From Terriglobia bacterium (GTDB lineage Bacteria; Acidobacteriota; Terriglobia; UBA7540), in NCBI GenBank assembly GCA_046706005.1, contig JBJKPU010000132.1, positions 1-64,000 on the forward strand: a DNA stretch of 64,000 nucleotides, read 5' to 3'. The notes beneath the pieces were generated by a model. The model did no database searches. It worked only from the letters and a program-made list of their open reading frames with translations, and was not told the origin of the DNA. Each line of letters begins with the position of its first letter. Within the stretch, counting starts at the first letter, position 1. Positions 7,847 through 40,854 of this stretch are shown in pieces. Position numbers and translations under genes: made by a program.

Positions 7847-9961
7847 ATGAATGCCAAAACCAGAATCCGCATGGGGACGGCTGCGATTTCGCTTCTGGTA
7901 GCCGCCGTGGCGTTTGCCTGCTTCTCGGCGATTCGCGAATTGACTCGCGCCAACGACCTCGTCGCTCACACCAACCGGGTTCTTGATGAAATCGATGCCA
8001 TTCCTTCCTACACCAAGGATGTGATCTCCGGCGCGCGGGGATATGTCATCACCGGCAACCGGATTTATCTTCAAGTTTACAACGACGCGGGCTCCCAGAT
8101 CGGATCCCACCTGAACTCGCTGTTCGACCTCACGGCTGACAGCCCGGTTCAGCGGAAGCACGCCGCCGAGCTTCGCGCGCTGGTTCAGGACGAACTCGAT
8201 ATTCAGGCGAAGATCATTCAGGCCCGGGCGGCGGGCGGCAAGCAGCTGCAGCAGGCTGCTTTTCTGGAAAGCGGCAAGCAGACCATGGACCGCATCCGCA
8301 GCCTCAGCGCTGAAATGAAGTTGGAGGAAAACCGTGTCCTGACGGACAACATGGACGCGGCCGACCTCCGCACGCGGCAACTGGAGATTACGATCTTCGC
8401 CCTCTGCCTTCTGGCCGTGCTGATGGTGGGCGGCACCTACGCCATCTGGGTGCACGACGGCCGCCTGCATGAGCAGGCTTCGCAGGAGCTGCGCGAGAGC
8501 GAGGAAAAGATCCGGCTGCTTCTCAACTCCGCTGCGGAAGCTATTTACAGCATCGATTTGCAGGGCAAATGCACCAGCTGCAATCCCGCCTGCCTTCACA
8601 TGCTGGGTTATCAGGATGAGCAGCAACTGCTGGGGCACGACATCCACAAGCTGGTTCATCACACCATGGCGAATGGCATGCCGTTGCCGGGCCGCGAATG
8701 CCGCATCCTGCGCGCCCTGCCATTGGAGCGCGGCGTCCACTCCGATGACGAAGTTTTCTGGCGCGCCGACGGCTCCAGCTTTCCCGTCGAATACTGGTCC
8801 TATCCCATGCGGCGCGACGGCAAAATAACCGGCGCCGTGATCACTTTTTTTGACATCACGCGCCGCAAGCAGACTGATGACGCGCTGGTGGAGGCGAACC
8901 AGAGGCTGGAAGCTTCCGTCCGCGACCTGGAGCGCGCCGGCGACGAAATTTCCCGCCTCAAGGAAATGGGCAGCCTGTTGCAAAGCTGTTTGACGCTTGA
9001 GGAAGCCTATCAGGTGGTCGAGCGGAGCGTGCGCGGCCTTTTCCCGCAGGAGTCGGGCGGCGTTTTCGTCATCGCTTCCTCGCGCGACATCGTGGAAGCG
9101 CAAGCCGTGTGGGGGCCGGGGCTCAGCGGCGAGAATGTTTTCAGCCGCGACGATTGCTGGGCGCTGCGCAGCGGCCAGCCCCATCGCGTGGAGGGCGGAC
9201 AATCGGGTCTGGTCTGCCGTCACGTCTCGTACTCGGATGGAATGTCCTACCTTTGCCTGCCCATGGTGGCGCAGGGCGAGGCGCTGGGTGTTCTGCACTT
9301 GCAGTTTCACGCCCCCGCGGGCTCCGAGATGGCGCTCGATGGAGACCACTTCCTGGGCCACCGGGAGGGCCTGGCCTCAACCGTGGCCGAGCAAATCGCT
9401 CTGGCCCTGGCCAATCTCCGGCTGCGCGACGCTCTGCGCGCCCAGTCCATTCGCGATCCGCTCACCGGCCTCTTCAACCGCCGTTTTATGGAGGAATCAC
9501 TCGACCGGGAACTGAAGCGTTCGGCGCGCAGCGGCCGCCCCGTGGGCGTGATCCTGCTCGATGTGGATCACTTCAAGCGCTACAACGATACCTACGGCCA
9601 CGAGGCCGGCGACGCCGTGCTGCGCGAGCTTGGCAACTTCATCCGCGCCCTGGTTCGCGGCGAAGATGTTGCCTGCCGTTATGGCGGCGAAGAGTTCATC
9701 CTTCTTATGCCCGAAGCCACGGTTGAAATCGCCGCCGCCCGCGCCGAGCAGTTGCGCCAGGGCGTGAAGCGCATTCAGGTCAGCGCTCATGGCCAGCCGC
9801 TGGGCGCCATCAGCATTTCGATCGGCGTGGCCGCCTATCCCGTCCACGGCGTGCTTTCCGACGTCCTCCTGCGCTCCGCCGATAACGCGCTCTATGAGGC
9901 CAAAAGTCTCGGCCGCGACCGCGTCGTCATTTCCACCGCCATCCCCGAAACCACCGCTTGA
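7847..9961 (+). CDS. membrane sensor diguanylate cyclase: CHASE3-TM-PAS-GAF-GGDEF
   Basis: N-terminal TM, CHASE3-like periplasmic region, second TM, PAS (CNPACLHMLGYQDEQQLLGHD), GAF, and a GGDEF domain with intact RYGGEEF and DxLT motifs. Confidence 0.85.
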   Translation: MNAKTRIRMGTAAISLLVAAVAFACFSAIRELTRANDLVAHTNRVLDEIDAIPSYTKDVISGARGYVITGNRIYLQVYNDAGSQIGSHLNSLFDLTADSPVQRKHAAELRALVQDELDIQAKIIQARAAGGKQLQQAAFLESGKQTMDRIRSLSAEMKLEENRVLTDNMDAADLRTRQLEITIFALCLLAVLMVGGTYAIWVHDGRLHEQASQELRESEEKIRLLLNSAAEAIYSIDLQGKCTSCNPACLHMLGYQDEQQLLGHDIHKLVHHTMANGMPLPGRECRILRALPLERGVHSDDEVFWRADGSSFPVEYWSYPMRRDGKITGAVITFFDITRRKQTDDALVEANQRLEASVRDLERAGDEISRLKEMGSLLQSCLTLEEAYQVVERSVRGLFPQESGGVFVIASSRDIVEAQAVWGPGLSGENVFSRDDCWALRSGQPHRVEGGQSGLVCRHVSYSDGMSYLCLPMVAQGEALGVLHLQFHAPAGSEMALDGDHFLGHREGLASTVAEQIALALANLRLRDALRAQSIRDPLTGLFNRRFMEESLDRELKRSARSGRPVGVILLDVDHFKRYNDTYGHEAGDAVLRELGNFIRALVRGEDVACRYGGEEFILLMPEATVEIAAARAEQLRQGVKRIQVSAHGQPLGAISISIGVAAYPVHGVLSDVLLRSADNALYEAKSLGRDRVVISTAIPETTA

Positions 9962-10060
9962 TGCCCACCGGATGCGCAACGGCTTCCGAGGGCTTTGCCC
10001 ATCGGCTGTGGCCTGCGTAAAAGTCATGAGTCTTTTTCGCGCGGTTCGTCGTAGATCAGA

Positions 10061-10669
10061 TTGGAGCGTACAATGGACGGCGCGATTCACCTCTTCGCAA
10101 TCACGATGGAACCGGAAACCAGAGCAGTGGCTCGCGGCTTGCGCCGGCGCGATCCGGACTTGTTGGACGCCCTGATCTCGCATTACGAATATCGCCTCTA
10201 CCGATACCTGCTTTACCTGACCGGCAACGAGGATGCCGCCCGCGATCTCTTTCAGGAAACCTGGTTGCGCGTGCTGGCCCGCGGCCATCAGTACGACGGA
10301 GTGTCCCGTTTTGAGCCCTGGCTCTTCTCGATTGCGCGTCACCTGGTGATTGACGCAAGCCGCCGCAGAAAGATGGAAAGTCTGGATGAAATGCTCGACG
10401 CGTCTTCGGGAGCGGTTCAGGAGCCGCGCGCGCCGGAGGAAGCTTCGCCGCTCGCTGAATATTCGAACCGCGAGCTCGCAACCAGGCTGGGAGGAATTCT
10501 GCAACGTTTGTCGGCCGTTTACCGGGAAGTTCTGCTGCTGAGGTTTCAGGAAGACATGACGTTAAAAGAAATCGCCGGCGTCCTTCGGGTCCCGATTGCA
10601 ACCGTGAAGTCCCGGCTGTATCGCGGGCTGAGCGCCGCCCGGGATTTCATCGAGGAACAACAGTCATGA
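10061..10669 (+). CDS. ECF (sigma-70 family) RNA polymerase sigma factor
   Basis: Region 2 (DLFQETWLRVL) and region 4 HTH (LKEIAGVLRVPIATVKSRLYRG). Confidence 0.85.
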   Translation: MERTMDGAIHLFAITMEPETRAVARGLRRRDPDLLDALISHYEYRLYRYLLYLTGNEDAARDLFQETWLRVLARGHQYDGVSRFEPWLFSIARHLVIDASRRRKMESLDEMLDASSGAVQEPRAPEEASPLAEYSNRELATRLGGILQRLSAVYREVLLLRFQEDMTLKEIAGVLRVPIATVKSRLYRGLSAARDFIEEQQS

Positions 10670-32697: not shown

Positions 32698-33936
32698 ATG
32701 CAGCACTCGGGACAACTGCTGTTTGAGCTCTTCCTGATGTTCGGCGCCGGAAAGCTTCTGGCGGAAATCTTTGAGCGGCTTCGACAGCCCGGCGTTCTGG
32801 GCGAACTCATTGCCGGCGTCGTCATCGGACCCTCCGTCCTCGCCCTGGTTCATCCCAACGATCTTCTGATGGGCATTGCGGAAATGGGAGCCATCTTTCT
32901 GCTCTTTTCCGTGGGCCTGGAAACCAGCCCCGGCGATCTTCTGGAAGTCGGCTGGACGGCGATGCTGGTGGCGATCATCGGCGTCATCATCCCCTTTGTT
33001 TTCGGCTTCTTCTTCATCCGCACCACCGCGCACAACAACGTTGAAGCCATCTTCGTAGGCGCGGCCATGGTGGCAACCAGCGTTGGCATCACGGCGCGCG
33101 TGCTTTCCGATTTGGGCGTGCTCGCCGCCCGCGCTTCGCGAGTCATTCTGGCGGCAGCCGTGCTCGATGATATTCTCGGCCTTCTGGTTCTCGCCGTCGT
33201 CAGCAGCATTTCAACCGGCAAAATCAGTTATACGCAGCTCGCCATTGTGGCCGGGGAAGCCGTGGCGCTGGCGCTGGTCATGATCTTCTTCGCTTCCCGC
33301 ATCATCGGTCACTTTCACGTTCACGTCGCCAAATTGCGCGCCCGCAATTCCGCTTTTATTCTTGCCGTCCTGCTGTGCCTCGGCCTCTCGCTCGCTTCCG
33401 TCAAGATCGGCATGGCGGCCATCGTCGGCGCGTTTCTCGCCGGCCTCGCTCTGGCCGACCACAGCGAGCACTGGCAGTTGCGCGAAAATTTCCATCCTCT
33501 CAGTGAATTTCTCGCGCCCTTTTTCTTCGTGATGCTCGGCGTGCAGGTGGACGTTCACACGTTCGTCAAGCCCGGACTGATTTACATCGCCACGGTCATC
33601 TGCGTCCTGGCCATCATCGGCAAGCTGATCGGCTGCGGCCTGGGCTCGATTCATCTGGGCTTCAAGGACGCGCTGCGCATCGGAGTCGGCATGGTGCCCC
33701 GCGGTGAAGTCGGCCTCATCGTCGCCGGCGTCGGCCTGACGCTCCATACCATTTCGCAGGGCATCTACGCCGTGGTTCTGCTGATGAGCATCGTCACCAC
33801 TCTGATTCCGCCGCCGTTTATCCGGTGGATTTTTCCCCACCCGCCGCCCGTGCCTTTCGCCGGCATTCCCGCCGCAGCCGATTCCGAAGCGCCGGGCGAT
33901 TCCGCCCCGTCAGATTTCGTTCCGCCTTCGGAGTAG
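32698..33936 (+). CDS. cation:proton antiporter (CPA family Na+/H+ or K+/H+ exchanger)
   Basis: About 12 TM segments with a Kef/NhaP-like pattern (GELIAGVVIGPSVLAL; FLLFSVGLE). Confidence 0.85.
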   Translation: MQHSGQLLFELFLMFGAGKLLAEIFERLRQPGVLGELIAGVVIGPSVLALVHPNDLLMGIAEMGAIFLLFSVGLETSPGDLLEVGWTAMLVAIIGVIIPFVFGFFFIRTTAHNNVEAIFVGAAMVATSVGITARVLSDLGVLAARASRVILAAAVLDDILGLLVLAVVSSISTGKISYTQLAIVAGEAVALALVMIFFASRIIGHFHVHVAKLRARNSAFILAVLLCLGLSLASVKIGMAAIVGAFLAGLALADHSEHWQLRENFHPLSEFLAPFFFVMLGVQVDVHTFVKPGLIYIATVICVLAIIGKLIGCGLGSIHLGFKDALRIGVGMVPRGEVGLIVAGVGLTLHTISQGIYAVVLLMSIVTTLIPPPFIRWIFPHPPPVPFAGIPAAADSEAPGDSAPSDFVPPSE

Positions 33937-34058
33937 CAATCTCGGTGAATCACGCCACGCTTGCCTGCGCTGAATGGTCCGTCCCGATTTTTCATTTGCC
34001 AGCCGTTTCGCCCTGGCCTATCCTTGGCCTCGTGAATCAGCGAAATGAGGAACTATCG

Positions 34059-36179
34059 ATGACCGCAGTTCGCCGCGCCGCATTTCTTGCCCTTGCCACA
34101 ATTTTCGCGGCCGCACTTGTCCAGGCTCAGCAGAAGCCGTTCACGCTCCAGCAGGTGATGAGCGCGCCGTTCCCGTACGACCTGACCGCCGCTCCCGCCG
34201 GTGGCCGCGTGGCCTGGGTGTTCAACGCCGCGGGCGCGCGCAACATCTGGATCGCCGAACCTTCCACATCCGGCGCCGGCGGTTTCGTCGCCAAGCAGTT
34301 GACTCATTACACCGGCGACGACGGTCAGGACGTGGGCCAGATCAGTTGGGCGCACGACGGCAAAACGCTTGTCTATACGCGCGGCGGCGATTTCGATTTT
34401 CCCGACAAGCCTTATCCCAATCCCTCGGCCGACGTGCAGGGCGTCGAGCAGGATATCTGGGCGGTTTCAATTCAGGGTGGCGCGCCCGTGAAAATCGCCG
34501 AAGGACATTCCGCGGCGGTCTGGCCTGCAGGCAACTATGTCGCCTACGTTTACAAGGACCAGATCTGGTATGCCAGCCTCGACGGCAGCGGGAAGCCCCG
34601 CCAGTTGATTCACGATATCGGCAAGGCGCGTCAGTTGCGATGGTCGCCCGACGGTTCCGCGCTCGCTTTCGTCAGCCATCGCGGCAATCACAACCTGATC
34701 GCCGTTTATTATCTCAATGCGGAGCGTCTCGTCTTTCTCGATCCCGGCGTTGATTACGACATGGATCCCACCTGGTCGCCCGATGGCAGCCGCATCGCTT
34801 TCGTGCGCGTGCCCGCCGCTTCCTACCGGCAGTTGGATATTGATGTCTTCCCGCATCGCAGCGGCCAGCCGTGGTCCATTGATGTGGCGGATGCTTCCAC
34901 CGGCAAAGGCCGTGCTGTTTGGACGGCCGACCCCGGGCAGGGAAGCGTTTTTCGCGGCATTGCCGAGCCCAACGATATTTTCTGGGCGGCGCACAATCTG
35001 ATTATTTTTCCCTGGGAAAAAGACGGCTGGCTGCATCTTTATTCTGTTTCCGCCGATGGCGGCCACGCGCATTTGCTCACGCCCGGCTCGTTCGTCGTCG
35101 AAAACGTTTCCCTCACTCCCGACCGCCGCGAACTGTTTTTCAATTCCAATCAGAATGACATTGACCGCCGCCACATCTGGAAGGAAGCAGTCACCGCTTC
35201 GCATCCCGTGGCCGTTACGGAAGGCAAAGGAATCGAATGGTCGCCCGTCATGCCCGGCGGTTCGATGGCGCTTTTCATTCTGCATTCGGATGCGCGCCGG
35301 CCGGGCTGGCCCGCCGTGATTGACGCATCCGGCAAGGTGGAGGATCTTGCTCGCGCCGTCATGCCCGCCGATTTTCCCGCCGCCGATCTGGTCGTTCCCA
35401 AGCAGGTGATTTTCGCCGCGCCTGACGGCCTCAAGATCCACGGCCAGCTTTTTCTGCCGCGCAACGCTGAAAACGGCAAGCGGCATGCGGCCATTGTTTT
35501 CTTTCACGGAGGCTCGCGGCGCCAGATGCTCCTCGGCTGGCACATGATGGATTACTACTCGAACGCCTACGCGCTCAATCAGTATTTCGCGAGCCGCGGC
35601 TTCGTCGTGCTCTCGGTCAATTACCGCAGCGGCATCGGCTACGGACTCGATTTCCGCGAGGCGCTCAAGTTCGGCGCCACCGGCGCAAGTGAATACAATG
35701 ACGTTCGCGCCGCGGCGCTTTTTCTGCGCACTCGCTCCGATGTTGACGCGAAGCGCATCGGCTGCTGGGGCGGTTCGTATGGCGGATATCTGACGGCGCT
35801 GGCTCTCGCGCGTTCCTCCGATCTCTACGCCGCCGGAGTGGATATGGCCGGCGTCCACGACTGGAACAACGAATTTCCTCTCTGGGTCGAGGGCTACGAT
35901 CCCGCGCTCGAAAAAGCGCGCGCCCGCCTCGCCTTTGAATCTTCTCCGCTCGCTTTCATCAAAACCTGGCGCTCGCCGGTTCTGCTGATTCAGGGCGACG
36001 ATGACCGCGACGTGCCTTTTGAGGAAACCGTTCAGATGACCGAGGCTCTGCGCCGCCAGGGCGTGGATTTCAAGCTGCTCGTCATTCCCGATGAGGTTCA
36101 CGTTCTGCTTCGCCACGCCAGTTGGCTCGAAGCCTATCGCGCCGCTGCCGCCTTTTTCGCTCAGCATCTGGGGCAGTGA
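34059..36179 (+). CDS. S9-family serine peptidase (prolyl oligopeptidase/acylaminoacyl-peptidase-like) with N-terminal TolB-like beta-propeller, secreted
   Basis: ATG at 34059 after TGAGGAA. Signal peptide. GGSYGG nucleophile elbow. Asp/His of the triad near the C-terminus. The longer table ORF overlaps the antiporter and is rejected. Confidence 0.85.
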   Translation: MTAVRRAAFLALATIFAAALVQAQQKPFTLQQVMSAPFPYDLTAAPAGGRVAWVFNAAGARNIWIAEPSTSGAGGFVAKQLTHYTGDDGQDVGQISWAHDGKTLVYTRGGDFDFPDKPYPNPSADVQGVEQDIWAVSIQGGAPVKIAEGHSAAVWPAGNYVAYVYKDQIWYASLDGSGKPRQLIHDIGKARQLRWSPDGSALAFVSHRGNHNLIAVYYLNAERLVFLDPGVDYDMDPTWSPDGSRIAFVRVPAASYRQLDIDVFPHRSGQPWSIDVADASTGKGRAVWTADPGQGSVFRGIAEPNDIFWAAHNLIIFPWEKDGWLHLYSVSADGGHAHLLTPGSFVVENVSLTPDRRELFFNSNQNDIDRRHIWKEAVTASHPVAVTEGKGIEWSPVMPGGSMALFILHSDARRPGWPAVIDASGKVEDLARAVMPADFPAADLVVPKQVIFAAPDGLKIHGQLFLPRNAENGKRHAAIVFFHGGSRRQMLLGWHMMDYYSNAYALNQYFASRGFVVLSVNYRSGIGYGLDFREALKFGATGASEYNDVRAAALFLRTRSDVDAKRIGCWGGSYGGYLTALALARSSDLYAAGVDMAGVHDWNNEFPLWVEGYDPALEKARARLAFESSPLAFIKTWRSPVLLIQGDDDRDVPFEETVQMTEALRRQGVDFKLLVIPDEVHVLLRHASWLEAYRAAAAFFAQHLGQ

Positions 36180-36218
36180 GTTGCGTGCCCATGGCGAGCT
36201 GGCATTAAGGGGCCCTGC

Positions 36219-36247
36219 TTGACCTGCCTCGCTAATTAGTGTATATA
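36219..36247 (+). promoter_or_regulatory. brnTA promoter TTGACC-N17-TATATA; predicted leaderless brnT mRNA
   Basis: TTGACC at 36219-24 and TATATA at 36242-47. The ATG at 36255 is 8 nt after the -10. Confidence 0.4.
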
Positions 36248-36254
36248 CATAAAT

Positions 36255-36545
36255 ATGTTCTCCTGGGACGCTGCGAAGGCCCTGAGGAACTTGGAAAAGC
36301 ATGGCGTCCCTTTCGAGGAGGCAGCGACGGTTTTTGTCGATGCGGAGGCGCTGGATTGGGAGGACCTGGAGCACGGTGATCTGGAGCGCCGGTGGAAGCG
36401 TTTGGGGCGCGCCGCCCGTGGCCGCGTGCTCCTGGTTGTCTATACGTTAAGGAAGGTGAAGAATGGCACGGAAACGATACGCATTATCAGCGCGCGGCAA
36501 GCGAGCCGTAAAGAGCGCAAGGCTTATGCCGGACAGCAGGATTGA
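36255..36545 (+). CDS. brnT: BrnT-like (DUF497) type II toxin
   Basis: MFSWDAAKALRNLEKHGVPFEEAATVF matches the BrnT family start. Confidence 0.8.
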   Translation: MFSWDAAKALRNLEKHGVPFEEAATVFVDAEALDWEDLEHGDLERRWKRLGRAARGRVLLVVYTLRKVKNGTETIRIISARQASRKERKAYAGQQD

Positions 36546-36756
36546 TTTTTCCGACATTCCGGAAACGACGGACGCGGAACTCAAGCGCGCCCGGCGCGTG
36601 GGCCGGCCGAAAACCGGAGAGGCCAAGCAGTTGATTGCCATTCGAATCGCTCCGCGGTTGCTCGCCGAGTTGCGCCGCCAGGCGGCTAAACAATCAAAAC
36701 CCTACCAGACCCTGATTCACGAATTGCTGGAAAAGGCCGCCCGCCGCGCGGCATGA
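36527..36756 (+). CDS. brnA: BrnA-like antitoxin
   Basis: Overlaps the brnT 3' end. Typical BrnA motifs (IDFSDIPE...RxGRPK...KxxIxIRLxxxxLxxxK). Confidence 0.75.
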
Positions 36757-36767
36757 CGGTCGCACTT

Positions 36768-36861
36768 GTAGCGCAGGGTTTGTGCATTTCAAACTCTGCG
36801 GTTCGTTCCGGGATGACGGGGAAAAGACCGCAGAGTTTTCAGGAAGGAAACTCTGCGCTAC
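36768..36861. repeat. structured repeat, copy 1 (GTAGCGCAG...CTGCGCTAC termini, two internal hairpins)
   Basis: Hairpin CGCAGGGTTTG-TGCATTT-CAAACTCTGCG, then GCAGAGTTTTC-AGGAAG-GAAACTCTGC. Terminal inverted repeats. Starts 12 nt after the brnA stop. Confidence 0.7.
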
Positions 36862-36871
36862 ACGCTAAGTG

Positions 36872-37231
36872 TCAGCCGGATTTCACATCTTCGAACCCGC
36901 ACGAGGTCAGAAGGGCCCGGCGGACCTCGGACCATTTTGAATCAGGCAGAGTGCAAAGCGGCGATCCGATGCGATCGCGCCGGGCAAGAGATAAATGGTC
37001 GGAATTGAGAGCGCATACGACCGGCATTCCATCGTCCGGCGAAAGAGCCACCGCAGTCGCCAGGCCGCGGATGGTCCGTGTTACCGGGACTACGATGACC
37101 TCGTTGAGATGGTCCATGACTTCGTTGCGGGTCAGGATAAGGACTGGGCGGCGTTTATCGGGAAGCCGAAACGTGTACCAGCGAATCTCGCCACGCTTCA
37201 AGCGATCCCCTCCCAACCGCCGGAGTCCCAC
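36872..37231 (-). CDS. MazF/PemK-family toxin (endoribonuclease-type)
   Basis: LKRGEIRWYTFRLPDKRRPVLILTRNEV...VIVVPVT resembles the PemK/MazF fold. Confidence 0.7.
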   Translation of the reverse strand: MGLRRLGGDRLKRGEIRWYTFRLPDKRRPVLILTRNEVMDHLNEVIVVPVTRTIRGLATAVALSPDDGMPVVCALNSDHLSLARRDRIGSPLCTLPDSKWSEVRRALLTSCGFEDVKSG

Positions 37232-37407
37232 GCGAGAGGTTCGTCATCGCTTGAGAATTCTCCGTTTCGAGGAGGCAGGGCGCGGTAGGCATCGCTATCG
37301 GTCGCCGGAAGACGACTGGAGAGCAGCCGGAGCGGCCGGAGTTGCTCTTCGCGCGAAAGGTGATCGACCAGAAGTATAATCTCGTCTGCGCTCGGAGATT
37401 TTGGCAT
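37198..37407 (-). CDS. putative cognate antitoxin (about 70 aa), overlapping the mazF-like start
   Basis: MPKSPSADEIILLVDHLSREEQLRPLRLL... Start ATG at 37407. 34-nt overlap with the toxin ORF. No family assignment possible. Confidence 0.45.
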   Translation of the reverse strand: MPKSPSADEIILLVDHLSREEQLRPLRLLSSRLPATDSDAYRALPPRNGEFSSDDEPLAWDSGGWEGIA

Positions 37408-37455
37408 CGGAACGATTCTACCAGAAACCGGTTCGCTGGTTCTGATTTTCGAGGC

Positions 37456-37519
37456 GTAGCGCCCACCCCGCCATGCGGGGTGGGCAGGTGCCGACCCCGC
37501 CAAGCGGGATCGGCGCTAC
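37456..37519. repeat. short variant element with the same GTAGCGC...GCGCTAC termini, enclosing two GC-rich hairpins
   Basis: GCCCACCCCGC-cat-GCGGGGTGGGC and GCCGACCCCGC-caa-GCGGGATCGGC, bounded by GTAGCGC / GCGCTAC. Confidence 0.45.
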
Positions 37520-37542
37520 GGCCGGTTGACGTAACTACAGCA

Positions 37543-37552
37543 TGTAGCTACA
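37543..37552. promoter_or_regulatory. perfect 10-bp palindrome TGTAGCTACA in the promoter region of the antitoxin/mazF-like operon (candidate operator)
   Basis: Self-complementary. Lies upstream (minus-strand sense) of the antitoxin start at 37407. Confidence 0.3.
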
Positions 37553-37574
37553 TTGGGCGACGACAAATGAAGGG

Positions 37575-37666
37575 TGTAGCGCAGAGTTTGTGCATTTCAA
37601 ACTCTGCGGTTCGTTTCCGGGCACGGGAAAAAGCCGCAGAGTTTCCAGGAGCGAAACTCTACGCTA
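37575..37666. repeat. structured repeat, copy 2
   Basis: About 90% identical to copy 1. Same hairpins and termini (GTAGCGCAGAG...CTCTACGCTAC). Confidence 0.7.
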
Positions 37667-37680
37667 CCAGCTGGAAGCGC

Positions 37681-37920
37681 GTGGGCCGAACGCGCGAACG
37701 CCGGATTGATTTCTCCGACATCCCGGAAACGACGGACGTGGAGCTGAAGCGCGCCCGGCGCGTGGGCCGGCCGAAAACCGGAGAGGCCAAGCAACTGATC
37801 GCCATTCGAATCGCACCGCGATTGCTCGCCGAACTGCGCCGCCAGGCCGCCAGACAGTCGAAACCTTACCAGACCCTGATCCACGAAATGCTGGAAAAGG
37901 CCTTGCGCCGCGCGGCATGA
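37681..37920 (+). CDS. orphan second BrnA-like antitoxin copy (no adjacent brnT)
   Basis: The C-terminal 70 aa are near-identical to BrnA at 36527-36756. GTG start inferred. The table ORF 37342..37920 upstream part has no support. Confidence 0.5.
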   Translation: MGRTRERRIDFSDIPETTDVELKRARRVGRPKTGEAKQLIAIRIAPRLLAELRRQAARQSKPYQTLIHEMLEKALRRAA

Positions 37921-37956
37921 CGGTGTCGCCTTCTGACATCGAACTCTGTTTTTCTC

Positions 37957-38014
37957 TTGCCTCCTCCCTCATCCTAGTATATAACCAGTTATGTTCGAGG
38001 CAAGTGAACGCTAG
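37957..38014 (+). pseudogene. duplicated brnT promoter plus 7-codon brnT remnant (ATGTTCGAGGCAAGTGAACGCTAG = MFEASER*)
   Basis: CTTGCCTCCTCCCTCATCCTAGTATATAACCAGTTATGTTC resembles the brnT upstream sequence CTTGACCTGCCTCGCTAATTAGTGTATATACATAAATATGTTC. Confidence 0.4.
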
Positions 38015-38068
38015 TCCGTACGGCTGGCGGATGGATCGACGAGCACAGCAGCCGCGTTGGAGGGGGAT

Positions 38069-39193
38069 ATGCCCGACAATCCACAGCAGGGCCCGAGCGC
38101 GCCGCCCGCGAGAGGGGACACGCCTCGAAAGGCCAAGCGCCGCAAGCGACGGAGGCACGGCGCGTCCTCGGGCGCCCGCGCCGAAGGCGCAGGGGGTAGA
38201 TCGACCTTCGCGTTCCCGAAGCATGCTCTATCGGAGTGTCTAAGGATTCCGAAGGCCATCTTGGACCAGAACGCGGGGAGGCAGTGCCGAGACCGAGATG
38301 CGGCGAGGTTCGCGGGGCTCGGCTATACGGGGGAGGTGTCCACCGAGATCAGCTCAGCGCTGAAGTACGGGCTACTCGACCGCCCTGCGCCGGGGACTGT
38401 AAGGCCCACTGACCTAATCCGGAGGATTGTCAGGCCCCAGAAGCCGGACGATGTCACCGACGCCATGAGGGAGGCCGTGCTCCACGCTCCGTTGATCTCG
38501 GACGCTTACAAGCACTACCGGGGTGAGAACCTGCCCGACATTCCCTTTCTGGCTAACACGGCTCGGGACACGTTCAAGGTATCCCCGGAGAAAGTGGACG
38601 CCTTCGTCGGTGTGTTTATTAGAGCGCTTGGGGACGCAAAGCTTATCGAGGACGCCGGGGGGAAAAACCGCGTAGTGGACGTAACGCGGACTCAGGACGT
38701 CCAAGGGAGCAGCGCCTCCGCCGACGAGCACTTGAAGAAGGTCAGCAGGGGCATATCGGTGCAGTCCAGTGATACGTGCTTTGTGATGATGCCGTTCGCA
38801 GACCCTCTTGGTGGGTACTATCACACTATCTACGCGCCCGCGATAAAGAAGTCGGGGCTCACGCCCGTGCGTGCGGACACAGATATCTTTGGGACCGGTA
38901 AGATCATCGACCAGATCTGGACGGGTATCAACAAAGCGCGGGTTTTGGTGGCCGAGCTTACTGGGCGAAACCCGAACGTACTTTACGAACTAGGCCTCGC
39001 CCACGCCCTGCGGAAGCCCGTTGTGCTCGTGTCCTCGAACGAGCCTGACGTGCCATTCGACGTGCGACACGTTAGGGTTATCTACTACGACGTGAACGAT
39101 CCCTTTTGGGGGGACAAGCTCATAGCCAAGGTCGCTGAGAACATCGTTTCTGCACTGAAGAACCCGAAGGAGGCCATCCTCTTTAGTGACTGA
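38069..39193 (+). CDS. hypothetical protein with C-terminal nucleoside 2-deoxyribosyltransferase-like / SLOG-fold domain (catalytic Glu retained) and basic disordered N-terminus
   Basis: The C-terminal CFVMMPF...NPNVLYELGLAHALRKPVVLV...RVIYYD parallels the NDT/Rcl/MilB pattern (IYLAGPxF...DxGTxFELGxAxAxGKPV) with the nucleophile Glu in YELG. GGAGGGGG RBS before the ATG at 38069. Lys/Arg-rich N-terminal 45 aa. Confidence 0.6.
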   Translation: MPDNPQQGPSAPPARGDTPRKAKRRKRRRHGASSGARAEGAGGRSTFAFPKHALSECLRIPKAILDQNAGRQCRDRDAARFAGLGYTGEVSTEISSALKYGLLDRPAPGTVRPTDLIRRIVRPQKPDDVTDAMREAVLHAPLISDAYKHYRGENLPDIPFLANTARDTFKVSPEKVDAFVGVFIRALGDAKLIEDAGGKNRVVDVTRTQDVQGSSASADEHLKKVSRGISVQSSDTCFVMMPFADPLGGYYHTIYAPAIKKSGLTPVRADTDIFGTGKIIDQIWTGINKARVLVAELTGRNPNVLYELGLAHALRKPVVLVSSNEPDVPFDVRHVRVIYYDVNDPFWGDKLIAKVAENIVSALKNPKEAILFSD

Positions 39194-39240
39194 AACCGAC
39201 GCCGGCGGCTGGCTCAGCGGTTCCTGACGGCGAATTTGCA

Positions 39241-39265
39241 GGGGCAGGTCTGTAAACCTGCCCCT
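39241..39265 (+). terminator. GC-rich hairpin GGGGCAGGT-CTGTAA-ACCTGCCCC downstream of the NDT-like gene (no U-tract)
   Basis: Perfect 9-bp stem 48 nt after the stop codon. Confidence 0.3.
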
Positions 39266-39287
39266 ACGCAAGTCCAAGCGGCGGGTT

Positions 39288-39381
39288 GTGGTGCAGAGCT
39301 TTGGGGTTTCAAACTCCGCGGTTTGTTCCGGGATGGCGGGGAAGAAGCGGCAGAGTTTCCAGGAGTGAAACTCCTAGCTAC
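39288..39381. repeat. structured repeat, copy 3 (diverged)
   Basis: GTGGTGCAGAGCTTTGGGGTTTCAAACTCCGCGG...GCAGAGTTTCCAGGAGTGAAACTCCTAGCTAC. Same architecture with substitutions. Confidence 0.6.
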
Positions 39382-39630
39382 CTGCTGACCACGTTTGGAC
39401 AATTGAGGAGGTGCCTAGGTAGGCTGGCTTTTAGGCTGCAAGAAAGCCAAGAGGGGCTCTGACGCACAGAGCCCCTCTCAGACTAGAATATAATATGTTA
39501 GACTTACTTAGAATAGCTGAACAATAAGATGCACCGAAAATATACGCGGATAAGCCCTAGATGTCAAGTGTTTTCTTCCACTAGTCCAAGGTTCTTTCTC
39601 CAATCTCAAATAATCGGGTTTATTAGGCAT

Positions 39631-40416
39631 TCAACTGGCGAGTGCTACTTTTACCTTTTCATTGTTCCTATTTAACCTTAGGGCCGTCGTTGGATATTGT
39701 GAACTGGGATTAGGGACAGAGTGTGTCTCTAATATCCCCAACTCAAGGCCTTCATTGATGCACTGTTGGCTGAAGCCATACTTATCGCGGACCAGTTTTA
39801 AGCCCACAAACGGGAGTCTTGATTCTAAAGCTGCGAGCTTCTTAATCGTGGTTGGCCAATCAGTGTTCCCGCTTTCGCCAACAGACGCGACGATGGATTT
39901 CGGCGAACCAGCAGGTTCGATGCCCAACAGCTTCTCGATGAAAATCACATTGTCCTGCCCAACAGCATCAGTGAGTTCTTTCGCGGTAGCTGATTCAAGG
40001 GCACAAATTTTGACTGTTTTGCCCTGGCTGCGCAACCTGTGAATCAAGTCGAGACAACCCCTGTCGCCGGTCACAAGGACAAACTCGTTTATGTCTTTCC
40101 TCTCATACAAGGTCTCCTGTGCATCAAGCATAAGAGTAGCATCGGCAGTTTCCTTCCATACGGATTCGGTTCCTTTTACCGTCTTTTTGGAAAGTGTGAA
40201 GGCTGGCTTAACTCCGGCCTTCATAAAGGCAGCTTGCGCCCCATGGAATTCGAGCCTCTCCCAATCGGCGTACGCATTTTTTATAAGCAGATTCCCATCC
40301 TTCTCAACTTCTTTAAGAATAAGACCGAAAAGGTGTGGTACTTGGGGCTTGAAATTATACTGGTTGATCAGCCCCCAATAGACATTCTCATAATCGATGA
40401 AAATCGCAACTTCCAT
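39631..40416 (-). CDS. NYN-domain (PIN-like RNase fold) protein with C-terminal OST-HTH/LOTUS domain, on an AT-rich insertion
   Basis: MEVAIFIDYENVYW...FVLVTGDRGCLDLIHRL is typical of NYN/LabA. The C-terminus is LOTUS-like. Local GC is far below the flanks. Confidence 0.8.
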   Translation of the reverse strand: MEVAIFIDYENVYWGLINQYNFKPQVPHLFGLILKEVEKDGNLLIKNAYADWERLEFHGAQAAFMKAGVKPAFTLSKKTVKGTESVWKETADATLMLDAQETLYERKDINEFVLVTGDRGCLDLIHRLRSQGKTVKICALESATAKELTDAVGQDNVIFIEKLLGIEPAGSPKSIVASVGESGNTDWPTTIKKLAALESRLPFVGLKLVRDKYGFSQQCINEGLELGILETHSVPNPSSQYPTTALRLNRNNEKVKVALAS

Positions 40417-40667
40417 GGCTTTTCCCCATTTCTGATGCCCGATACTAACGGGACAGCGCTTTATATGTCAAGCTGATTAAGTGCTAGCCAATCTACCATC
40501 TGCCCCTTTCAAAATGTACCACTAGCCTTGAGCGTATCAATTTGACTTTACCTACCGCTCGGTAGGACAATAGGCGCAAGCGGCCTCGACGCGCGGGGAC
40601 CGGCGATCGGACGACCCATAAGGTTGCTGAAAAACATTCTGGAGCCCGTTATTCGGAGCCTTCGCTC

Positions 40668-40795
40668 CGTCATTCCGAGCGAAGCGAGGAATCTGCTTTT
40701 CGCTCCGGGCGGGTTCCGCGAGCGCTTTTGCTCCACGGGTTGAAAGCCAAGCAGATTCCTCGGGCCGATAAAAACGATCGGCCCTCGGAATGACG
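40668..40795. repeat. MITE-like element with 12-bp perfect terminal inverted repeats CGTCATTCCGAG / CTCGGAATGACG, inside the leuA leader
   Basis: The left end CGTCATTCCGAGCGAAGCGAGGAATCTGC and right end GCAGATTCCTCGGGCCGATAAAAACGATCGGCCCTCGGAATGACG pair over about 23 bp. The motif resembles a repeat I recall as dispersed in Acidobacteria genomes. Confidence 0.5.
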
Positions 40796-40854
40796 TTCGA
40801 GCACCGTTTTTCTGCAACCGACTTGTGGCAGAATCAGGGGCGGGAGGAAAGCGA

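Follow-up and report, generated by a model that had tools for sequence, protein, structure and literature searches.

N-glycosidases of the nucleoside 2-deoxyribosyltransferase (NDT)/TIR fold are increasingly recognised as a major class of executioners in immunity, with examples in Thoeris, retrons, Avs, Swarozyc and human TEP1. The gene considered here encodes a 374-residue protein and lies in a 64-kb stretch of DNA from a Terriglobia bacterium of the Acidobacteriota (assembly GCA_046706005.1, contig JBJKPU010000132.1, positions 1 to 64,000), which is called the window throughout. Its product carries a basic tail and a tandem winged-helix module in front of an N-glycosidase-like domain of the MilB/DNPH1/NDT fold. 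With moderate confidence, the gene is read as a stand-alone, nucleic-acid-binding, Glu-dependent N-glycosidase that serves as a conflict effector, most likely against phages. The family consists of a known effector domain and an undescribed sensor module, and it is conserved across phyla. As effectors of the NDT/TIR fold are already established in immunity, this candidate is no conceptual surprise; it is the sensor that is unusual.

A counterpart of the enzyme domain is found in ThsI of type VIII Thoeris. ThsI is composed of a “CMP hydrolase” domain and a TPR-S domain, and the TIR protein of the system makes canonical cyclic ADP-ribose (cADPR). The system guards Escherichia coli against phage T2, a supply of cADPR halts growth, and an action of ThsI on the nucleotide pool is put forward by the authors as a hypothesis only (bioRxiv 10.64898/2025.12.03.692087). 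On plasmids, the enzyme domain forms the N-terminus of “TRAFs-binding domain” proteins, and both plasmid proteins that were inspected carry the Pfam domain TPR-S. A ThsB_TIR gene starts 6 nt after the gene of the pA7J1 protein, and a TIR gene lies one gene away from its counterpart on an Agrobacterium plasmid. The window protein is 34% identical to the N-terminal domain of the pA7J1 protein over 146 residues (E 2e-19), the pA7J1 protein standing for the ThsI architecture in this comparison. The two share the motifs CFV.MxF, RAD, NPN..YELG..HA and PFD..H.R. Judged by sequence, the pA7J1 pair has the ThsI/type VIII Thoeris architecture, and the enzyme domain of the window protein is homologous to the effector domain of a validated immune system. 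The sensors differ. ThsI, whose enzymatic activity is only hypothesised, has its TPR-S sensor at the C-terminus and an adjacent gene for the cADPR-making ThsB-type TIR protein, whereas in the window protein the basic tail and the tandem winged helix are N-terminal and the enzyme domain is C-terminal. Neither TPR-S nor any other TPR was matched by Pfam in the window protein. Lacking TPR-S and an adjacent TIR gene, it is not ThsI.

The type II retron effectors (Ec86/Eco1, Sen2) resemble the window protein in design, as they combine an NDT-fold enzyme with a winged-helix nucleic-acid binder. They form NDT–NDT dimers that are restrained by bound multicopy single-stranded DNA, and on activation the Ec86 effector reportedly depletes adenine and adenine derivatives (bioRxiv 10.1101/2023.08.16.553469). 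In these effectors the NDT domain is N-terminal and followed by a single C-terminal winged helix-turn-helix, whereas the window protein has the opposite order and two winged helices. The sequence matches and the structural matches in the PDB included no retron effector, so that the likeness is a design analogy and not a close kinship. Membership among the retron effectors, which need a neighbouring reverse transcriptase and an msr/msd RNA, was rejected on the reversed domain order, on the lack of a reverse transcriptase among the annotated neighbours in the window and on the lack of an Rfam match in the scanned interval 36000-40800.

The best structural and profile matches of the enzyme domain are MilB, DNPH1 (Rcl) and the NDTs, which share the YELG-like motif around the nucleophilic glutamate. 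They are metabolic enzymes, small and with a single domain, while the window family adds RAD, AHA..KP and PFD..R motifs of its own. The TIR-like NADases comprise TIR, the CAP12/Pycsar TIR (PF10137) and DUF4062 of Swarozyc/NIR; their Pfam signatures are absent from the window protein, which matched none of the Pfam models TIR, TIR_2, PF10137 and PF13271. Membership in DUF4062/NIR was rejected on the missing PF13271 match. The original prediction had stated that no known system matches this architecture. This holds for the protein as a whole, as the literature searches turned up no account of the complete architecture, but not for its parts: the effector domain is that of ThsI, and effectors combining an NDT-like domain with a winged helix are known from type II retrons.

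Domain architecture of the protein

The reading frame is a genuine gene, and an identical protein (P0001) is already present in databases. A protein search returned more than 3000 homologs at E≤1e-3, of which the best 120 are 63-80% identical to the query (E≤1e-154). The closest matches come from metagenome-assembled genomes of Terriglobia/Acidobacteriia. Together with the GGAGG upstream of the ATG, these results confirm the 374-residue gene as it had been called.

The protein starts with a disordered, Lys/Arg-rich tail, in agreement with the original prediction. In an AlphaFold2 model computed from a 32-sequence alignment, the predicted local distance difference test score (pLDDT) lies below 50 over most of residues 1-45. 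The tail contains 12 lysines and arginines and has a net charge of +9, and the tails of homologs keep a charge of +7 to +11 despite their variable sequence. In the same full-length model, residues 50-205 exceed a pLDDT of 90, and residues 235-370 take on an alpha/beta fold with moderate confidence.

When the middle region is modelled alone (pLDDT 92.3, predicted template modelling score 0.86), two winged-helix units are obtained. The first unit (wH1) is basic (pI about 10, charge +6) and the second (wH2) is acidic (pI about 5). Over 132-146 residues and at 3.1-3.3 Å, the module superposes on the domains with which FokI and N.BspD6I recognize DNA, on 3bhw, which is an uncharacterised protein from Magnetospirillum, and on BrxA; for FokI, N.BspD6I and BrxA the matched length is 137-146 residues. 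At the sequence level, searches of the module against Pfam, PHROGs and PDB profiles gave no match; BrxA (from BREX) and the recognition domains of FokI and N.BspD6I are 9-10% identical, show no sequence-level kinship and are fused to different partners. The region had been described as helical and of unknown function. By its fold matches it is a tandem winged helix of the FokI-recognition/BrxA type. The tail and wH1 would bind nucleic acid. With a mean column identity of 76%, the module is so highly conserved that it is expected to read something invariant and not a fast-evolving phage protein. Candidate cues are nucleic-acid structure, a modification or a small signal.

The C-terminal domain is characterized by the motifs CFVMMPF, RAD, NPNVLYELGLAHA..KP and VPFD..H.R. 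Several of its relatives score above the cut-off of Pfam PF05014 (29.6-37.2 bits), and among 28 diverse copies of the domain PF05014 matches 25, while TIR_2 weakly matches one. A profile built from the 28 copies detected DNPH1/Rcl (E 1.3e-7) and a trypanosomal NDT (E 1.2e-3) in the PDB. In Foldseek searches, DNPH1 and NDTs rank high with template modelling (TM) scores of 0.6-0.7, normalised to target length. The model displays a flavodoxin-like alpha/beta fold of the NDT type, so that structure prediction sustains the proposed likeness to the NDT/DNPH1/MilB superfamily, the Pfam clan Nribosyltransf, and leads to no unrelated fold. The accompanying label of a SLOG superfamily member was dropped, since in neither sequence nor structure is the domain closest to the LOG, DprA or ThsA-SLOG types; it lies on the NDT/TIR continuum.

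The candidate catalytic nucleophile is Glu307 (NVLYELG), which aligns with the nucleophilic glutamate in the GYELG motif of rat Rcl/DNPH1 and matches its placement where the helix following strand 3 begins. As anticipated, this residue is kept across homologs: all 32 close homologs have it, and so do at least 90% of the 28 diverse copies, where the only exception noticed on inspection is the degenerate second copy of a tandem pair. Beyond Glu307, the polar residues R268, D270, D281, N301, N303, H312, K316, D331 and R336 are conserved. These family-specific residues suggest a ligand that may be larger or more charged than that of DNPH1.

Distribution, genomic contexts and relatives of the enzyme domain

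The full-length family was confirmed at 354 loci among 185,579 species genomes (one genome per species, about 0.2%). Its members share 55-80% identity over at least ten phyla, which include Acidobacteriota, Bacteroidota, Planctomycetota, Verrucomicrobiota, Pseudomonadota (Alpha-, Beta- and Gammaproteobacteria), Nitrospirota, Gemmatimonadota, Desulfobacterota, Spirochaetota and candidate phyla. The family is thus common in soil phyla that are poorly covered by defence screens, for instance Acidobacteriota, Bacteroidota and Planctomycetota. Its patchy spread across phyla is consistent with horizontal transfer. The whole protein was not found on phages or plasmids, which carry only its C-terminal domain. 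In one Mucilaginibacter homolog (L029 9764-10981) the coding sequence appears to be split into open reading frames (ORFs) of 291 and 113 codons, possibly by a frameshift or as a pseudogene.

The genomic contexts were sampled at 82 non-redundant loci, at which 1037 neighbouring ORFs within 7 kb were clustered by BLAST. No neighbour family occurs at more than 6 of the 82 loci, and therefore there is no obligate partner. IS200-type transposases form the commonest cluster, and phage-type integrases recur as well. The 150 immediate and 144 next neighbours were additionally scanned with Pfam and PADLOC. The recurrent families belong mostly to defence or mobile elements (TIR_2 in four neighbours, ResIII, HSDR_N, DNA methylases, Mrr, AbiEii-like AAA_21, PIN, BrnA and IS200), the only exceptions being two transporter families, MFS_1 and Sugar_tr. 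Among the families seen once are the defence genes DrmD, S_4TM, Bpu10I, BglII, Shedu and ThsB, and also the housekeeping genes for Hsp70, GroEL, gyrase, ribonucleotide reductase and glycyl-tRNA synthetase.

Nine contexts were fully annotated. Clear defence, toxin–antitoxin or mobile genes lie within 8 kb in seven of them; the eighth (L007) has a PDDEXK_5 gene only, and the ninth, a contig of 2.9 kb, does not differ from the window locus. The homologs are accordingly not confined to housekeeping contexts. Examples are AbiU2 together with Schlafen/AlbA_2 and a cluster of SNF2/DUF1156/DUF499, DndB with GIY-YIG, a Type I restriction-modification system with resolvase, ParB/RepB, reverse transcriptase and ThsB/SIR2, and loci with HigBA and IS21 or with HicAB. 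A Schlafen/AlbA_2 protein of about 400 residues lies within 1.2 kb of the homolog on two unrelated contigs (L003 6609-7802 and L142 5498-6802).

Divergent TIR and NDT-like neighbours were overlooked by the BLAST clustering and later recovered by profile iteration. An adjoining gene with TIR_2, a paralogous NDT-like domain or a fusion of both is present at 7-8 of the 82 loci and additionally at L139. TIR_2 genes or NDT-like–TIR fusions occupy positions ±1 or ±2 at L033, L040, L059 and L077, and position +1 at L139, where the NDT-like–TIR_2 fusion (9227-10099) lies on the same strand, 72 nt after the homolog. The −1 neighbour at L052 is NDT-like and has only a weak TIR_2 match. These neighbours suggest that an optional two-gene form of the system exists. 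Such neighbours are located at L040 10999-11888, L083 11084-12259 and L074 11124-12218, among others; their NDT-like domain is sometimes in tandem, and at L040 an overlap of 4 nt is shared by the NDT-like ORF and the TIR ORF.

The enzyme domain is far more widespread than the full-length family. When 1.84 billion cluster representatives (50% identity) were searched with a profile, 26,759 clusters were found at E≤1e-3, of which 11,922 reach E≤1e-10. These make up a very large body of unannotated proteins, much of which could be annotated once the chemistry of the domain is fixed. Outside of the full-length family, the domain occurs alone with C-terminal extensions of 100-150 residues or as tandem pairs, and relatives are fused to REC, GAF, PP2C, a PMT_2 membrane domain, EAD7 or EAD8. 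The fusions to REC, GAF, PP2C and PMT_2 imply that the domain also serves as a regulated output in signalling proteins. In P0205, P0260, P0263, P0235, P0184 and P0175, tandem domain pairs stand behind REC, a triple GAF, PP2C or PMT_2, and some of these proteins end in EAD7 or EAD8. EAD7 and EAD8 are adaptors that recruit effectors to NTPase-based conflict systems (Kaur et al., eLife, PMC7159879). In phages, the domain matches several PHROGs of unknown function. Streptococcus phage Javan37 encodes a 231-residue enzyme-domain protein (L136 4004-4699) between repressor and cro, on the repressor strand, a position in the lysogeny module that is typical of prophage-encoded defence genes; similar matches occur in Staphylococcus, Enterococcus and Klebsiella phages.

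Proposed mechanism and alternative explanations

In the proposed mechanism, the basic tail and wH1 of the FokI/BrxA-like module would bind nucleic acid and act as a sensor or tether. Binding would either keep the enzyme inactive on host DNA or assemble it on the nucleic acid of an invader. Once the trigger is bound, the enzyme domains would be gathered, the active unit probably being a dimer or a higher oligomer. Dimers are the active form of NDTs; because the domain also occurs so often in tandem, the enzyme domains of the window family are expected to pair, and the frequent tandem copies fit a dimeric active unit. Glu307 would subsequently split a small nucleotide at its N-glycosidic bond, so that an essential metabolite is depleted and the phage can no longer replicate, probably to the detriment of the infected cell. 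By analogy, several substrates are conceivable: a nucleoside or deoxynucleoside monophosphate (NMP or dNMP), the type used by MilB and DNPH1; an adenine nucleotide, the reported target of the retron Ec86 effector; or NAD+, which TIR and DUF4062 domains cleave. We infer the enzymatic activity, the activation by oligomerisation and the defence role from the domain content, the relatives and the contexts. The description of the gene as a conflict or defence effector is upheld by relatives in conflict contexts and by neighbours from defence, toxin–antitoxin and mobile elements, but it is qualified by the lack of a conserved partner and by the loci surrounded entirely by housekeeping genes. If the assignment is true, a compact form of one gene and 374 residues is added to the NDT/TIR-fold effectors, in which the sensor is a module of the DNA-recognition type and not a signal receptor. 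The high conservation makes it easy to test, as there is one gene with one obvious candidate for the catalytic residue.

A bolder version is tentative at best. In this version, the protein is a single-chain immune sensor-effector whose FokI/BrxA-like winged helices would recognize an invariant feature of invader nucleic acid, such as modified bases, free ends or replication intermediates, and would assemble the MilB/TIR-like domains on this nucleic acid to form an active enzyme. The enzyme would then strip bases from invader DNA, act on special nucleotides such as 5-hydroxymethyl-pyrimidine dNMPs, or destroy NAD+ or ATP. If true, nucleic acid would be the direct activating scaffold of an NDT-fold enzyme without a retron, TIR or cyclase partner, which is an undescribed mode.

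Several observations weigh against the reading as an N-glycosidase conflict effector. The query itself scores 22.3 bits against PF05014, under the cut-off of 28.8, and the model of its C-terminal domain has a pLDDT of 56-82, that is, moderate confidence. The position of Asp69 of rat Rcl, the second catalytic residue of DNPH1/NDT enzymes (Asp72/Asp92 in the NDT of L. leichmannii), aligns with Ile283 or Trp284, neither of which is acidic, and a full DNPH1-type active site is therefore not established; the near-invariant D281 lies one helical turn before this position, and strand 1 carries F238 in CFVMMPF. DUF4062, a related “CMP-hydrolase-like” domain, proved to be a NADase, so that the fold leaves the substrate unfixed. 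The identity between phyla of 55-60% is unusually high for a defence gene and would suit a regulatory or housekeeping role just as well. At some loci the neighbours are housekeeping genes only, and the link to defence islands, which was drawn from raw counts, is no more than suggestive. No model in PADLOC (2023), NCBIfam, Pfam or PHROG covers the whole protein.

High conservation and a histone-like basic tail would also suit a non-immune role, either as a ligand-sensing, DNA-binding regulator or as a nucleoid-associated protein, in which the NDT-like domain binds or slowly turns over a nucleotide and thereby controls DNA binding. Such a logic would be like that of regulators that join a helix-turn-helix to a sugar-phosphate sensor, such as RpiR and NanR, and Foldseek indeed aligns the whole model with NanR (E 3e-4), albeit at a TM-score of only about 0.2-0.3. 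The domain relatives fused to REC, GAF and PP2C and the housekeeping neighbours at several loci point in the same direction. A core regulator, however, would not be expected in only about 0.2% of species genomes, patchily distributed with a near-identical architecture and no synteny. There is also no conserved target operon, defence, toxin–antitoxin and mobile genes are often near, and the catalytic glutamate is conserved together with about ten further polar residues. We regard a regulator as unlikely. The homology of the enzyme domain to the ThsI type raises the different question of whether the protein does the killing in a Thoeris-like pathway, in which a TIR-made nucleotide signal is received by the winged helices and the TIR gene is adjacent, elsewhere or absent. 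The TIR or NDT-like–TIR neighbours at L033, L040, L059, L077 and L139 would fit. About 90% of the loci, however, have no adjacent TIR gene, and where TIR/NDT-like neighbours exist they vary in strand and position. A small custom TIR profile found no TIR-like ORF in the window, which has no second copy of the enzyme domain either. Winged-helix domains are not known to receive cADPR-type signals. Such a pathway is accordingly held to be quite improbable.

The winged helices could alternatively place the NDT-like domain on DNA, perhaps modified phage DNA, where bases would be removed from the polymer in the manner of a restriction glycosylase without a methylase partner. FokI and N.BspD6I, whose recognition domains the middle module matches, use these domains to bring a catalytic domain to DNA. 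The basic tail and wH1, the fact that the gene stands alone and the recurrence of restriction-modification genes nearby agree with such a function. The closest enzymes, MilB and DNPH1, moreover prefer 5-hydroxymethyl-pyrimidine nucleotides, and some phages carry such bases in their DNA. Against a DNA glycosylase stands the substrate range of the fold, as the characterised enzymes of the NDT/MilB/DNPH1 and TIR types all use mononucleotides, nucleosides or NAD+, and none is known to act on polymeric DNA. The same enzyme domain is also joined to partners that do not bind DNA (TPR-S, REC, GAF), and the growth arrest that cADPR induces through the type VIII Thoeris effector indicates a host metabolite as the target. 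An action on polymeric DNA is for these reasons given very little weight.

The island around the gene

A peptidase gene (33825-36179) on one side and leuA/leuB (from 40825) on the other flank the 4.5 kb of sequence that contain the gene. The features of this island are collected in Table 1.

Table 1 Features of the gene, its product and the surrounding island (window coordinates)
Feature	Coordinates	Strand	Basis or remark
brnT/brnA	36255-36756		Pfam E 3e-25 and 2e-7
Structured repeat of ~100 nt, copy 1	36766-36866
PemK/MazF toxin gene	36872-37231	-	Pfam E 6e-12
Structured repeat of ~100 nt, copy 2	37575-37673	+	Upstream of the unit of second brnA copy (brnA') plus target gene
Second brnA copy (brnA')	37675-37924		DNA 86% identical to 36511-36760
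Likely promoter region	37955-38020	+	45-nt segment resembling the region upstream of brnT; putative function
Shine-Dalgarno-like GGAGGGGG	38059-38066	+	Sequence read; GGAGG core at 38059-63, then 5 nt, then ATG at 38069
Target gene, 374 codons plus stop	38069-39193	+	ORF list, homologs; alternative TTG start at 38057
Residues 1-45, disordered Lys/Arg-rich tail	38069-38203	+	pLDDT, alignment, charge calculation
Residues 46-210, tandem winged-helix module	38204-38698	+	Predicted structure, fold search
Residues 234-374, MilB/DNPH1/NDT-fold (TIR-related) N-glycosidase-like domain	38768-39190	+	Sequence, profile and fold matches
Glu307 codon, candidate catalytic nucleophile in YELG	38987-38989	+	Alignment with rat Rcl/DNPH1
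Structured repeat of ~100 nt, copy 3	39286-39386	+	Just 3' of the target gene
NYN-domain gene	39631-40416	-	Pfam E 2e-19; GC content 0.46 against about 0.60 around

Pfam searches and repeat comparison recovered most of the neighbourhood that had been proposed from the sequence, namely brnTA, a mazF-type toxin gene, an extra brnA, structured repeats and a low-GC NYN insertion. Two details were not recovered. Of the supposed mazEF-like pair only the mazF half was found, as the ORF upstream of mazF, the presumed mazE partner, has no Pfam match, and the C-terminal 100 residues of the NYN protein, which had been taken as a LOTUS domain, gave no Pfam match to LOTUS/OST-HTH.

The target gene may be under the control of a copied brnT promoter. 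A local alignment of 36217-36260 with 37955-37996 showed a gapped likeness of 45 nt and the remnant of an ATGTTC start that is followed by an early stop. The duplicated brnT promoter and remnant that had been claimed can thus be traced in part, but the likeness is weak and makes a duplication only plausible. The unit at 36511-36760, of which the second brnA copy is a duplicate, is composed of the last 35 nt of brnT and the whole of brnA.

The three repeats of about 100 nt are 77-93% identical and form nested or paired hairpins built on GCAGAGTTT...AAACTCTGC. Within the window they are confined to the island, where they bracket the mazF cassette and the cassette of brnA' and the target gene. 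A scan of 36000-40800 gave no Rfam match for them, and the repeat was not found in the other homolog loci that were fetched. A reading as integron attC sites was rejected, as the repeats form two hairpins or nested stems and the attC core sites are missing. They have the look of repetitive extragenic palindromic (REP) elements or miniature inverted-repeat transposable elements (MITEs) and may have mediated local rearrangements. The hairpin in copy 3 may act as a terminator of the target gene.

Over the 5' end of the ORF upstream of mazF lies a further inverted repeat of 32 nt (37455-37520; 81% complementary, with a spacer of 2 nt), which could be an operator or a terminator. The NYN gene is convergent with the target gene, and the same pair is found on an independent Logan contig (L001).

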